From sequence record MN850615.1: DNA of 64,000 bases. One strand, written 5' to 3'. The translations under genes and the position numbers were made by a program. Positions 2,337-54,900 of this stretch are shown here, piece after piece. Every line of letters begins with the position of its first letter. Position 1 is the stretch's first letter. Source of the DNA: Escherichia phage kvi. The notes beneath the pieces were generated by a model. That model was not told where the DNA came from and ran no database searches. It was given only the letters and a program-made list of their open reading frames with translations.

Positions 2337-3578
2337 ATGACTCATATTTTTACTGAACTGTTGCGGGAATCTACTTCCTCAGTAGCTAACCAGACAGCGC
2401 GACCGCAACTATTATCATTAACTCGCGCGGTAAACAACCTGATTTTCTCTGATCTGGTAGCAATCCAGCCAACGGATCAACCAGTATCTGCATTGTACGG
2501 CCTACGTTATCTTAATCGTGATGGTCAGATGACTTTCCGAACTGCTGCGACCTACGGTGGCGCGGCTGGTGATCGCACAGAGATTGAAGAGTTTTCAAAA
2601 GAAAAATCTTATGACGAAGGCGCACTATTCAAATCAGGCGATGTTGTATACGAAGTTGTGACCGCTGGTACAGTCGGTGAAGATGCCGAAACTCCAGAAG
2701 CTGCAATCTTTAAAGGCGTAATGACAAACAAAATTCGTTTCTACAGCGATTGTGCATCGGTAGAATACTTTGAAGATAAAAACACCGAAATTTCGTCTAC
2801 CTCTATGCAGTTTGATAAATGGCAGGTTAATGTAGGTTCTCGTAAACTGAAAACCTCATTCACGACCGAATTGATGCAGGATCTTGAGGCAAGCCAAATC
2901 AACTCTGAAAACTCTGTAATTGATCTTCTGGCTACTGTTGCTTCCGAAGAGATCAACAAAGATATTATTCAGAAGTTGATCACTGTATCATCTCGCTATA
3001 AAATTAAAGGGATCACCCCTGATGGCGTACTTTCTCTCGTTAGCGTTCAGGATGCACCAACACAAGCGCGTGAACTTTACCGCTACGCGTGCGAAATGAG
3101 CAATCAAATGTTGCGTACTTCCTCCTTTGCTGGTACATACGTTTTGGCTTCTTCTCGCGTGGTTGGCCTCCTGCAATCTACCGGGTGGATGGAAGAAACC
3201 GACAATGCTCTAAGCGAAGGTCGTCTACGTTGCGGTCTGGAAGTGTACGCAGACACGACAACACCTTTCGATTATATGCTCGTTGGTTGTAAGCACATGA
3301 TCGGTGATATGGAGAGTGTAGGTTCTCTGTTCTACTCCCCATATACAGAAGCCGACGGCGCTGGCGCGTATAAGAGCGTAATTGACCCTAATAGCTTCCA
3401 GCATCATGTAGCTATTATGAATCGTTATTCACTCTCTGTCAACCCATACACATCAAAAGTTGATCAGGAAGAACACCAGGTCATCAAGGGTGACGATTGG
3501 GGTAAAATGGCTGGACGTTCAGAAATGTCCTACATTTTAGGAATCGAACTGCCACCGCTTGAGATTGACAACGCTTAA
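2337..3578 (+). CDS. 24: Head vertex protein gp24
   Basis: 413 aa from ATG 2337 (track ORF starts earlier at an alternative codon); gp23-paralog similarity, position directly after 23. Confidence 0.9.
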   Translation: MTHIFTELLRESTSSVANQTARPQLLSLTRAVNNLIFSDLVAIQPTDQPVSALYGLRYLNRDGQMTFRTAATYGGAAGDRTEIEEFSKEKSYDEGALFKSGDVVYEVVTAGTVGEDAETPEAAIFKGVMTNKIRFYSDCASVEYFEDKNTEISSTSMQFDKWQVNVGSRKLKTSFTTELMQDLEASQINSENSVIDLLATVASEEINKDIIQKLITVSSRYKIKGITPDGVLSLVSVQDAPTQARELYRYACEMSNQMLRTSSFAGTYVLASSRVVGLLQSTGWMEETDNALSEGRLRCGLEVYADTTTPFDYMLVGCKHMIGDMESVGSLFYSPYTEADGAGAYKSVIDPNSFQHHVAIMNRYSLSVNPYTSKVDQEEHQVIKGDDWGKMAGRSEMSYILGIELPPLEIDNA

Positions 3579-4166
3579 CTAAATATCTAACCAAGACAAG
3601 TCAGATCCGCCCAAGATTTTTTCGACGGCGGATCTATTTTCTTGATGATATAAGTTAAAACATGGTATCCCATGTCTACGGGCAACATAAACAGCAATTC
3701 GAGTTCCTCCCGAAACGATTCCATTAACTTCTTTCGCCCAGAATATCACACAATCTACAGGATCATCAAGTGTCTCACCTAAGACTTGAGCAACATTTCT
3801 AGAAAACAGATTTTGCATGTATAACGGTATAGAACGAGGATTATCATAAACGTGTTCTAATTCATCCATCGCCAGATTCTTTTGTTCTAAGGTTTGCCAT
3901 GCAATAACATCATGACCGTTATGCTTATGGTCATAAAACTTCCAATTTGGAATGAAAATTTTTCTATAATCTGGATCGTAATACTTCATGAAAGCATTGT
4001 CCATACCGTAAGCCCCTCCAGAATGCGCTACAACGCGATTTTCTGACAATACCCTCCCAATGGTACTAGCCATTATCAAAATGTCGCTAGGCGCTTTTCT
4101 AGAGCCTATTAAAGCACATCTACGAAGTGGTTTTACTCCAAATAGATCTTGTAACTGGTCAAACAT
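3579..4166 (-). CDS. DprA/Smf-like (SLOG-type Rossmann fold) protein
   Basis: 195 aa; ALIGSRKAPSD...VVAHSGGAYGMDNAF and IVSGGTRIAVYVARRHGIPCF resemble the DprA Rossmann core; GGAGG SD. Confidence 0.5.
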   Translation of the reverse strand: MFDQLQDLFGVKPLRRCALIGSRKAPSDILIMASTIGRVLSENRVVAHSGGAYGMDNAFMKYYDPDYRKIFIPNWKFYDHKHNGHDVIAWQTLEQKNLAMDELEHVYDNPRSIPLYMQNLFSRNVAQVLGETLDDPVDCVIFWAKEVNGIVSGGTRIAVYVARRHGIPCFNLYHQENRSAVEKILGGSDLSWLDI

Positions 4167-4190
4167 AATATTTCCTCCATAGAAAGCAAT

Positions 4191-4219
4191 ATCATACTAC
4201 AAGTTAATAACAAATGCAA
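4191..4219 (-). promoter_or_regulatory. Putative sigma70-like promoter (TTGCAT-17-TATGAT)
   Basis: On - strand upstream of 3579..4166; weaker match than the PeSL promoters. Confidence 0.3.
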
Positions 4220-4320
4220 GTATCCGCGTAGCGGAAGCGAGCACAGCGAGCAATAAAAACACTTCCAGTAATTGATTAATAAATGTTCGAAACAAATTTT
4301 TATTATTCTATAAGATAAGT

Positions 4321-4345
4321 CTTCGTTTTGATCATAATTTAATCA
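4321..4345. repeat. Direct repeat copy 1 (25 bp, CTTCGTTTTGATCATAATTTAATCA)
   Basis: Identical 25-mer recurs at 4470-4494 inside a 410-bp non-coding stretch. Confidence 0.6.
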
Positions 4346-4469
4346 TACATGTAAAAACTACACAAAAGGATATCGCTTCGCGAACCCCTACGGAGTATAA
4401 CATTTGTGTTACAATATGTAGTGATTAATAATTAACCAAAGATACATTTTCTATGTTCTAAAGATCTTT

Positions 4470-4494
4470 CTTCGTTTTGATCATAATTTAATCA
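4470..4494. repeat. Direct repeat copy 2 (25 bp)
   Basis: Identical to 4321-4345; flanks also similar (CATGTAAA..ACTA). Confidence 0.6.
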
Positions 4495-4547
4495 AACAGT
4501 ATTAATATTGTGCACATGTAAACTAAAATTATGTTAATAACAGATAC

Positions 4548-4572
4548 AAAAAAGCCGCCCAGAAGGACGGCT
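4548..4572 (-). terminator. Rho-independent terminator (- strand)
   Basis: GC hairpin AGCCG..CGGCT followed on - strand by TTTTTT; just downstream of ORF 4581..5018. Confidence 0.5.
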
Positions 4573-4580
4573 AATGTTAA

Positions 4581-5018
4581 TTATTTGTTGATAACGATCT
4601 GATTTCGGCGAATGGTAACATTACTCTTAGAGATGATCAGATCATCCGGCACTACGTTAGTTTTGTATGGTTGGAATCGAACAAGCATCTGATTGCGTTT
4701 AGACCCTTCCTTAATCTTGATTTCCATCTGGATATTGTTGCCTACGTGAGCAACCGCAATTTCACCTTTATTCTCATAGACCCACTTGCTGGTAACGTCT
4801 CCAGCAAAAGCCTTAATAACTTGCAATGCTTCGTCGTATGCGGTAGAGCTGTGAACTTTCAGAAGGCCAGCCGTAGCAAGACGGGAGCAGGTGATCGCCG
4901 GAGATTGCCAAACATCAACATTAATTTGCTCAATCAGAGTAACACCGCCCTGATCAACTGCTTTGAATGCTTCGAACATTGCCTTTTTCATTGCTACGTG
5001 GTTTTTACGGAATTTCAT
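4581..5018 (-). CDS. Hypothetical protein
   Basis: 145 aa; ATG with GAGGTG SD; no recognisable motif. Confidence 0.6.
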   Translation of the reverse strand: MKFRKNHVAMKKAMFEAFKAVDQGGVTLIEQINVDVWQSPAITCSRLATAGLLKVHSSTAYDEALQVIKAFAGDVTSKWVYENKGEIAVAHVGNNIQMEIKIKEGSKRNQMLVRFQPYKTNVVPDDLIISKSNVTIRRNQIVINK

Positions 5019-5064
5019 AATTAGTCACCTCTATTGATTAGTTATTCAGAATATTAATTACAAA

Positions 5065-5340
5065 TCAGGACATTGCCCGTTTGAATGCGTCCATTATAAC
5101 AGTGTTATTTGGCTTGTCAACACGTTTTTGAACTTTATTTTTAAATTTTTTGTTGATGTGGTGTTTACGATAAACAACCTTTTCACGATTGGCGTAAGAC
5201 TCTCGTGCATCTTTTACCATCAACCATGCCTTAGCCGCATCTTGTCCGCTGATCCCGCCAATCTTCTTAGCAATATCAACAAAATTAAGACCGTGGTCTT
5301 CGCGTAGCATGTAAACCATTAACGCTGTTTTCTTGTCCAT
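5065..5340 (-). CDS. Hypothetical basic protein
   Basis: 91 aa, lysine-rich C-terminus; start overlaps upstream stop (TAATG). Confidence 0.55.
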   Translation of the reverse strand: MDKKTALMVYMLREDHGLNFVDIAKKIGGISGQDAAKAWLMVKDARESYANREKVVYRKHHINKKFKNKVQKRVDKPNNTVIMDAFKRAMS

Positions 5341-5664: not shown

Positions 5665-5692
5665 ATTATAGGCATCTAAATCGCTCTGTCAA
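5665..5692 (-). promoter_or_regulatory. Early promoter (TTGACA-16-TATAAT)
   Basis: rc of TGTCAA at 5687-5692 and ATTATA at 5665-5670. Confidence 0.5.
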
Positions 5693-54741: not shown

Positions 54742-54770
54742 AGCCGATCCATGTGGTCGGCTTTATTTTT
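54742..54770 (+). terminator. Terminator after gene 35
   Basis: AGCCGATC..GGTCGGCT hairpin followed by TTTATTTTT. Confidence 0.55.
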
Positions 54771-54892
54771 ATACAGTTGGTTAAATTGTAACCAAAACGA
54801 AGAAAGATCTTTAGAATAATAGAAAATTTGTTTCGGTTAAAAAGTAGTCAGTGCCTACGGCACGTCGCGAAGCGATATTTTGTTAACATTCT

Positions 54893-54900
54893 ATAAATAC
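54893..54900 (+). promoter_or_regulatory. Late promoter motif TATAAATA for gene 36
   Basis: Exact TATAAATA 32 nt upstream of ATG. Confidence 0.5.

Follow-up and report, generated by a model that had tools for sequence, protein, structure and literature searches.

What is the function of a short, gene-free stretch of phage DNA that carries the same 25 nucleotides twice? In the 64,000-nucleotide stretch of Escherichia phage kvi DNA analyzed here (MN850615.1; hereafter the window), such a spacer of 414 bp (4167-4580) separates two minus-strand open reading frames (ORFs), ORF165 and ORF164, the latter encoding a stand-alone DprA-like protein. An original prediction made from the letters of the window pointed out the repeat, CTTCGTTTTGATCATAATTTAATCA, and suggested that the spacer could be a duplicated operator, a small RNA locus or the scar of a lost mobile element. 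The window was identified as belonging to Krischvirus, the RB49/Phi1/JSE group of T4-type coliphages. From 3400 to 5100 it shares 99-99.8% identity with 58 Krischvirus genomes (RB49, Phi1, JSE, ECD7, and others), and the spacer is 100% identical to that of phage vB_ESM-pEJ01 and 94.5-100% identical across 58 Krischvirus records; the curated RefSeq records carry no annotation in it. We found that the repeat is part of a structured cassette of ~150 bp, which occurs four times in the phage genome and which appears to represent a family undescribed so far. Our tentative reading, to which we give a probability of a little over one third (about 0.37), is that the cassette is a portable transcription-control module akin in kind to the promoter-early stem-loops (PeSLs) of the same phages.

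The duplication of the 25-mer is exact (4321-4345 and 4470-4494). The identity really extends over 26 nt (4320-4345 and 4469-4494) with a period of 149 bp, and the flanks, predicted to be similar, are 89% identical over 38 nt and 78% over 77 nt. When up to three mismatches were allowed, CTTCGTTTTGATCATAATTTAATCA had only these two matches in the window, and no match was obtained in any of 100 shuffles. The orientation had to be corrected: the flanking genes are on the minus strand, and the 25-mer is to be read as the reverse complement of the letters first quoted. The gap indeed holds no convincing ORF, the longest open frame in 4167-4580 being 32 aa. ARAGORN detected no tRNA in the spacer, and an Rfam covariance-model search of it with permissive E-values returned terminator look-alikes only (best E 0.24). 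These scans exclude chance, a coding region, and a known RNA family as the origin of the repeat.

On the minus strand the spacer reads as the terminator of ORF165, two cassettes designated K2 and K1, a GC hairpin, a sigma70-like promoter, and the Shine-Dalgarno (SD) sequence of ORF164. The intrinsic terminator (4548-4572; an 8-bp stem with 6 GC pairs and a T-run), which several public records also annotate as a terminator, is followed by about 50 nt of poorly conserved spacer. Palindrome 1 (TTGATTA-aatta-TGATCAA) opens each cassette together with an invariant block, CAAAACG; this is the portion covered by the 25-mer, the most conserved part of each cassette. At 12 nt past this block lies TAGAAC (K2) or TAGAAT (K1), followed by an A+T-rich stretch. 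As a whole, the cassette is built as an imperfect inverted repeat of ~80 nt, in which two AT-rich palindromes (TTGATTAAAttaTGATCAA, TTGGTTAATtATTAATCA) and a short, covarying central helix enclose an A+T-rich, -10-like core (TAGAAT/TATAAT). Behind it stand GC-rich mini-hairpins, one or two in number, in which a C-G pair closes a loop of GAA, GTA, or TAC, C(GNA)G. Cassette K2 (4373-4495; nhmmer E=5e-14 for the RB49 orthologue) holds the 25-mer copy at 4470-4494 and comprises palindrome 1 (4477-4495), TAGAAC (4455-4460), palindrome 2 (TTGGTTAAT-t-ATTAATCA; 4421-4439), an extra hairpin (4396-4414), mini-hairpin A (CTCC-GTA-GGGG; 4385-4395), and, abutting it, mini-hairpin B (TCGC-GAA-GCGA; 4373-4383). 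Cassette K1 (4224-4346; nhmmer E=2.3e-12) holds the copy at 4321-4345 and comprises palindrome 1 (4328-4346), TAGAAT (4305-4310), a degenerate right-arm remainder at the position of palindrome 2 (4272-4296), the direct repeat GCTCGC-N3-GCTCGC (4237-4251), and the hairpin CCGC-TAC-GCGG (4224-4234). The last two elements account for the GC-rich segment noticed in the original prediction, which is real and spans about 4224-4251. Between K1 and the ORF164 start codon (ATG at 4166) lie the sigma70-like promoter TTGCAT-N17-TATGAT (4191-4219), which scored 8.6 with a position weight matrix (PWM) and was below the threshold of a consensus scan, and the SD sequence GGAGG (4174-4178).

A cassette profile searched with nhmmer against the 162-kb RB49 genome detected exactly four cassettes (E 6e-16 to 2e-12) and nothing else. 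The duplication comprises the whole ~150-bp cassette beyond the 25-mer, and the four-copy family extends past the segment to which attention was first drawn. The third copy, K3, was revealed by self-comparison of the window on the plus strand between tail-fibre genes 35 and 36 (54777-54876; nhmmer E=1.1e-15). It is preceded by a terminator (54742-54770), contains palindrome 1 (54777-54795), TAGAAT (54812-54817), and two mini-hairpins (54851-54863 and 54864-54876), and is followed at a distance of 16 nt by the late promoter TATAAATA (54892-54899) upstream of gene 36. The fourth copy, K4, was found in the complete RB49 genome upstream of late gene 3, where it backs onto a small divergent ORF. 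All four cassettes are intergenic and oriented as the next gene (ORF164, gene 36, or gene 3), and all precede that gene's own promoter; a strong terminator lies just upstream of K2 and K3. A scan of genome contigs with the cassette core gave scattered chance matches only. Small coding ORFs within the cassette were rejected by eye: the ATG of palindrome 1 opens frames of 8-18 codons, which are absent in K3, K4, one cassette of a distant relative (L108A), and the prophage copy described below.

Dispersed copies of this kind might be a selfish or neutral repeat, a palindromic element resembling miniature inverted-repeat transposable elements that spread to sites between genes, is homogenized by gene conversion, and does nothing for the phage. 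The terminal palindromes and the overall inverted-repeat build are as expected of such an element, as are the dispersal of the copies, one of them in an unrelated prophage, and the 92.7% identity of K3 and K4 over 110 nt despite unrelated flanks. We nevertheless consider this improbable. The spacer is present in 58 of 58 Krischvirus records with no presence/absence polymorphism, the orientation toward the downstream gene is constant, and tandem copies are kept at one locus in relatives down to 50% protein identity; this syntenic retention over long times disfavours a selfish repeat. No target-site duplication was seen, as there were no duplicated flanks at K3 or K4, and no transposase is associated. 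Among 14 Krischvirus genomes, substitutions concentrate between the terminator and K2, whereas the cassettes are nearly invariant; this applies above all to K1, which is invariant in these 14 genomes, and to its GC-rich end. The few cassette changes within Krischvirus convert wobble pairs to Watson-Crick pairs or fall in loops. At 4387, in hairpin A of K2, the window has a G (U.G pair) where 13 of 13 other Krischvirus sequences have an A (U-A pair). Phage G2248 shows two changes toward K3 in the first palindrome of K2, which suggests gene conversion between cassettes.

The syntenic locus was also found in distant relatives. Four of them, here called L113, L108, L105, and L109 (ORF164 homologues 87, 70, 57, and 50% identical, respectively), carry two or three tandem cassettes there, the gene-free gap being 327-434 bp in the last three. 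A further relative, L156, found through an ORF165 homologue 89% identical, has tandem cassettes in a 446-bp gap; in L107 (ORF164 59% identical) the locus reaches the contig end and the visible part shows the same units. A metagenome scan for ORF164 relatives added near-identical phages only. The cassettes are more conserved than the adjoining spacer and than the surrounding proteins. The -10-like hexamer is a perfect TATAAT in several of these relatives, and the central inverted repeat is longer in L105 (CAAACGTCAT...ATGACGTTTG) and L109 (TACGTTTTCTCTATA...TATAGAAAAAACGTA). In L113 (IMGVR_UViG_3300005711_000029) the core is replaced by TTGACA-N17-TGTAAT. Two side observations concern positions 1300-1500 of the same contig: its ORF164 homologue seems to start further upstream (MSDYISQLDQLQDL...), and an extra CTAG-rich insert, also present in the prophage, lies between the cassettes and the gene.

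The comparison with relatives also bears on the idea that the spacer is the remnant of a lost ORF, of which rnlB (RNA ligase 2) is the obvious candidate. The DprA-like gene immediately follows rnlB, which occupies the T4 24.1 position, in JD18, MP1, and Matisse (Jiaodavirus, Gualtarvirus, and Slopekvirus), and tblastn with three RnlB proteins found no rnlB anywhere in the Krischvirus genome, which has kept the DprA-like gene. However, the same three proteins gave noise in the spacer (best E 0.5, 550-nt database), which effectively refutes an rnlB pseudogene, and the spacer is built of repeated, structured units that are conserved as such in relatives, L113, L108, L105, L109, and L156 all having tandem cassettes at this locus. 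A decayed gene is thus highly improbable, with rnlB itself excluded. Of the readings first offered, the scar of a lost mobile element, or of a gene, is not supported: rnlB has left no trace, and phages with proteins only 50% identical still retain the spacer and its tandem units. A duplicated operator or a small RNA locus may still be right, the repeat being a whole structured cassette.

A cassette outside the virulent phages was detected by scanning IMG/VR with the cassette core. Apart from Krischvirus contigs, about 25 near-identical prophage contigs of ~35 kb contained one cassette each, and the remaining matches were unrelated chance matches; a second scan with the L105-type core yielded unrelated coding matches only. 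The prophage, ~36 kb long and encoding a large serine recombinase, is integrated in ycdX (about 1.912-1.948 Mb in E. coli NZ_CP098223.1) and is present in 58 of 5426 complete E. coli genomes; its sequence was analyzed as L104:5673-19994 and L110:1-22066. Over 41 nt its cassette shares 90% identity with K2; it is located at one edge of a 1.4-kb gene-free divergent control region (L104:8492-9882), which contains about ten TTCAGGGGCAAAAAT iterons, several CTAG-rich repeats (ATCTAGTATCATCTAGTT), GC mini-hairpins, and two further short motifs common to the spacers of Krischvirus relatives. The region looks like an origin or an immunity control region; Rfam gave no match to the prophage copy or the region. 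Among the prophage genes is one for a UvsW-like helicase that shares 80% identity (500 aa) with its RB49 counterpart. A tail-fibre protein (37-44% identity to a protein from the tail-fibre region of RB49) and two small ORFs (about 45% identity) also have relatives in RB49. The cassette, the helicase, and these other genes held in common indicate that the prophage and RB49 have exchanged DNA, a documented case in which one partner is temperate and the other a virulent phage of the T4 type.

To what extent the cassette folds was evaluated with an alignment of 12 cassettes, in which three helices were defined: palindrome 1, the central helix, and palindrome 2. These core helices pair in 81.8% of cells compared with 72.9% in shuffles (0 of 500 reached the observed value), and sliding the partners lowers pairing to 27-50%. 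In the central helix, both sides vary at six of seven pairs. Mini-hairpin B is 88% paired, with four of five pairs compensatory and the closing C-G invariant. Among the 137 pairs of the hand-aligned mini-hairpins, 132 are Watson-Crick; three to six pair types occur at positions 3-5, and most loops read GAA, GTA, or TAC. The hairpins are therefore real and under selection, and may act in RNA or in single-stranded or cruciform DNA. Minimum free energy (MFE) folding turns each cassette core into one long imperfect hairpin. The summed MFE is -380 kcal/mol for the sense strand versus -355 kcal/mol for the antisense strand, with several z-scores unremarkable, and G.U exceeds A.C by 25 to 10 on the sense strand, these counts not being independent events. 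Since the loop orientation also flips, from CGGC-GTA-GCCG in L113 to CGGC-TAC-GCCG in L156, the support for a preferred strand is weak.

These data make a structured RNA the main rival to a transcription-control module. The cassette would then act in the sense transcript as an intercistronic element for RNA processing or stability, in which a long imperfect hairpin comparable to the T7 sites for RNase III is accompanied by protective 3'/5' mini-hairpins, or would represent a small RNA gene family. A structured RNA accounts for the covariation of the core helices and mini-hairpins better than transcription control does, and it fits the G.U excess and lower folding energy of the sense strand, the location of every copy between co-oriented genes in the sense orientation, and the change of wobble to Watson-Crick pairs or of loop positions within Krischvirus. 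On the other hand, there is no Rfam match in the spacer or the prophage copy, K2 and K3 are directly preceded by strong terminators, and divergent genes adjoin K4 and the prophage copy, upstream of which the PWM detected no sense promoter. The arm sequences are conserved beyond what pairing requires, and the strand argument is blunted by the flipping loops, the small energy gap between strands, and the dependence among the wobble counts. An RNA element fits the upstream terminators and the divergent contexts less well. We favour transcription control and regard a structured RNA as unlikely, though it is the best of the alternatives.

The reading as a transcription-control module is based on the intergenic position and fixed orientation of the cassettes, the conserved box at -35/-30, the recurring promoter-like geometry, and the copy in the control region of the prophage. 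The most conserved block, (A/T)TCAAA(A)CG, sits 12 nt upstream of the -10-like hexamer, the position of a -35 or activator box. The palindromes fit the core consensus of the host protein Fis; genome-wide, GNNYRWWWWWYRNNC had only 22 matches, of which five are in cassettes, in a test devised post hoc. In PWM scans, sense matches were observed at a fixed position in the cassettes of L109 (12.1; TTGAAC-17-TATAAT) and of L105 and L108 (8.1-8.3), and antisense matches over palindrome 1 in L105, L107, L108, and L113 (10.2-11.4); K4 has an antisense match of 8.7 over palindrome 1, which faces the divergent small ORF. The promoter proximal to ORF164 has equivalents in L105 (10.1), L107 (9.3), and L113 (7.4). 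While the anatomy, copy number, conservation, and orientation of the cassettes, the covariation of their hairpins, and their occurrence in a prophage were observed, promoter activity, protein binding, and any physiological role are inferred. The cassette may be a weak or factor-dependent sigma70 promoter, possibly bidirectional, with the -35 in the right arm of palindrome 1, and the palindromes could be recognized by a dimeric protein that binds or bends DNA. The hairpins behind them would reduce read-through or stabilize RNA ends, and the repeated cassette could supply homology patches for recombination.

Several results weigh against this interpretation. The consensus scan (9/12) of the gene strand found no promoter in the spacer or in any cassette, and K1, K2, K3, and the prophage copy all scored below 7 by PWM. 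The -10-like hexamer departs from the consensus in K2 (TAGAAC) and in L156 (TATAGA). The genuine early promoters are near-perfect, unlike the cassette matches: a 12/12 match (TTGACA-16-TATAAT with TG; 5093-5120, minus strand) lies inside the 3' end of gene 24.3 and faces ORF165, and another (5665-5692, minus strand) lies just downstream of hoc and faces ORF167; both fit the published PeSL early-promoter type of RB49 and Phi1 (PMC4122927). The sequences thus suggest a promoter potential that recurs and is neither uniform nor strong in Krischvirus itself. A sigma70 promoter before late genes 36 and 3 has no obvious purpose. The Fis consensus was applied after the sequence had been seen. No DNA-binding protein common to the prophage and RB49 was found, the helicase, the tail fibre, and the two small ORFs being all that this search revealed. 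Helices change on both sides even among cassettes of one genome (L108A, L108B, and L108C), which fits nucleic-acid folding better than an operator for one protein. A literature search found neither transcriptome or transcription start site data for Krischvirus nor a described repeat. Other candidates were rejected by eye, as no box fitting all copies was found for LexA, Fur, IHF, PurR, or MotA by comparison with the consensus sequences, nor did sigma54, sigma32, or sigma28 promoters, a type III toxin-antitoxin RNA array, or lambda nut/put sites fit all copies.

The arrangement of a -10-like hexamer and an A+T-rich stretch also recalls a replication origin of the T4 type, in which a promoter and an A+T-rich unwinding core would be combined with very stable C(GNA)G mini-hairpins of DNA on the displaced strand that favour a persistent R-loop primer. 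The cassettes are ~100-150 bp long, the -10-like hexamer is followed by A+T-rich DNA (83-87% AT in 30 bp), and they are located at three dispersed loci. Relative to the T4 map, these loci lie near the surroundings of oriF (uvsY, next to uvsW/hoc/24), oriG (gene 34 cluster), and oriE (near genes 2/3/4/5). RB49 lacks both motA and middle promoters (PMC1524935), which excludes origins of the MotA-dependent T4 kind. The prophage copy adjoins the roughly ten TTCAGGGGCAAAAAT iterons, and the prophage carries the UvsW-like helicase; in T4, UvsW unwinds origin R-loops (PMC3016281). However, the evidence is purely circumstantial: T4 origin positions match only to several kb, phage intergenic DNA often contains A+T-rich stretches resembling a -10, a tandem duplication is not expected of an origin, and the promoters of the Krischvirus cassettes are weak matches. 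The GC skew of the window merely tracks gene orientation and has no bearing on an origin. A role in replication initiation is accordingly quite unlikely, and its full form, in which the four cassettes would be the Krischvirus origins, the mini-hairpins on the displaced strand would lock the R-loop, and the module would have been passed to the iteron-bearing prophage, is slightly less likely still. Whether it serves as a regulated promoter, in RNA processing, or as an origin, the cassette is a testable candidate for a missing cis-element in a phage that lacks MotA. It precedes two late genes and a gene of the anti-defence type, is shared with a resident E. coli prophage, and belongs to RB49-like phages, which are widely used therapy candidates and the classic 'pseudo-T-even' comparison to T4.

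The gene downstream of the tandem cassettes, ORF164 (3579-4166, minus strand), abuts the end of gene 24. It was predicted to be a 195-aa protein with a DprA-type nucleotide-binding core, and the ORF is real and encodes a single Rossmann domain of the DprA/SLOG type. Residues 15-187 matched phrog_768 (E=1.2e-60; profile positions 4-181 of 191), a family already named 'DprA-like DNA recombination-mediator protein' in public annotation, and RefSeq likewise calls the protein DprA-like; tblastn detected relatives in 1354 phage records. The motifs GSR, SGGA.G.D, and GGTRIAV are invariant across seven homologues. With Pfam PF02481 (DNA_processg_A) only residues 15-60 aligned, at 22.3 bits, under the cutoff of 29.6, and TIGR00732 gave 14.4 against a cutoff of 191. 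The AlphaFold (AF2) model (predicted local distance difference test (pLDDT) 83.8, predicted template-modelling score 0.84) is a single alpha/beta domain with neither the N-terminal SAM nor the C-terminal winged-helix domain of DprA, which bears out the statement that other DprA domains are missing. In Foldseek its best PDB match was H. pylori DprA (E about 1e-5, TM about 0.5), and DprA, ShosA (the Shosta antitoxin), Moco-carrier, and LOG structures, together the SLOG group, made up the top 45 matches, among them the ShosA structure 8zva (E=1.4e-3). PADLOC gave weak matches to PsyrA (4e-5) and ShosA (3.5e-4). ORF164 is thus an ordinary member of a widespread phage DprA-like (SLOG) family that is already known, and adds little in this respect; its resemblance to ShosA and PsyrA and the usual linkage of the family to rnlB are worth an experiment. 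By analogy with ShosA and PsyrA, a phage-encoded antitoxin mimic is conceivable. According to the prediction of a published survey, SLOG domains of viruses act against host immunity that relies on nucleotides (PMC9503650). The conserved pairing of rnlB with the DprA-like gene may point to a function in the repair of nucleic acids or nucleotides.

On the other side of the cassettes, ORF165 (4581-5018, minus strand; 145 aa, phrog_15652) has 11 homologues, every one at the syntenic locus and always directly upstream of the cassette pair, and is confined to Krischvirus-like phages. Its AF2 model is confident (pLDDT 80.8), with a helical N-terminal half and a small beta sheet, and had no match in the PDB below E=0.5. 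Gene 24.3 (5065-5340, minus strand; DUF2774) follows, then ORF167, hoc, inh, and uvsW; on the plus strand, gp23 is encoded at 2-1600 and gp24 up to 3578. By eye, a segment of gp24.3 (...GLNFVDIAKKIGGISGQDAAKAW...) resembles a helix-turn-helix, and the gene is syntenic with the cassettes in all relatives; the protein might be a candidate for DNA binding.

Both the protein and the cassette were compared with known systems. ORF164 shares with DprA and other SLOG proteins, including the antitoxins ShosA and PsyrA, the fold and the GSR...SGGAxGxD...GGTR motifs. It differs from DprA and ShosA as a 195-aa single domain without SAM or winged helix that falls below the Pfam and TIGRFAM cutoffs, and from bacterial DprA in forming its own phage family, phrog_768, often next to rnlB. 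For the cassette, one precedent is T7, the early genes of which have RNase III processing hairpins in intercistronic positions. The likeness consists in repeated, imperfect hairpins of ~60-80 nt with an internal loop, intercistronic and in the sense orientation. However, the T7 sites lie in one long transcript with no preceding terminator, whereas terminators stand before two of the cassettes, whose cleavage is putative. A second precedent is provided by T4 oriF and oriG, units of ~100 bp in which a promoter with a sigma70-type -10 is combined with an A+T-rich DNA unwinding element (PMC3016281). The cassettes resemble them in size, in the sigma70-type -10 and A+T-rich DNA, in their small number, and in their occurrence in late-gene regions. 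T4 has about five origins, in late-gene regions or near strand switches, with no common sequence motif (PMC3016281), in contrast to the repeated cassettes; T4 origins also need a MotA box, which RB49 is without.

The closest relatives in kind are the PeSLs, cassettes of a sigma70 promoter and a stem-loop that mediate shuffling in RB49 and Phi1 (Arbiol et al. 2010, PMC2839356) and whose promoters were described by Comeau et al. 2014 (PMC4122927). PeSLs have near-perfect TTGACA-N17-TATAAT promoters and, usually, stems of the G(n)-loop-C(n) type, with about 50 copies in a genome. The present cassettes have a poor -35, TAGAAT or TAGAAC as -10, a long inverted repeat, and, as stems, covarying GC-rich hairpins of 4-6 bp rather than polyG/polyC, with AT-rich palindromes in addition; there are four per genome, two of them before late genes. 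The promoters, and less clearly the stem composition, speak against a canonical PeSL. Nevertheless, the K1 hairpin together with TTGCAT-N17-TATGAT fits the PeSL subclass with a stem-loop upstream of the -35. Both families are composite motifs repeated between genes of the same phages, with promoter-like boxes next to stem-loops; both lie beside non-core genes or in plastic islands of the structural module, the hoc region being named explicitly, and both are proposed to serve as homology patches for modular shuffling.

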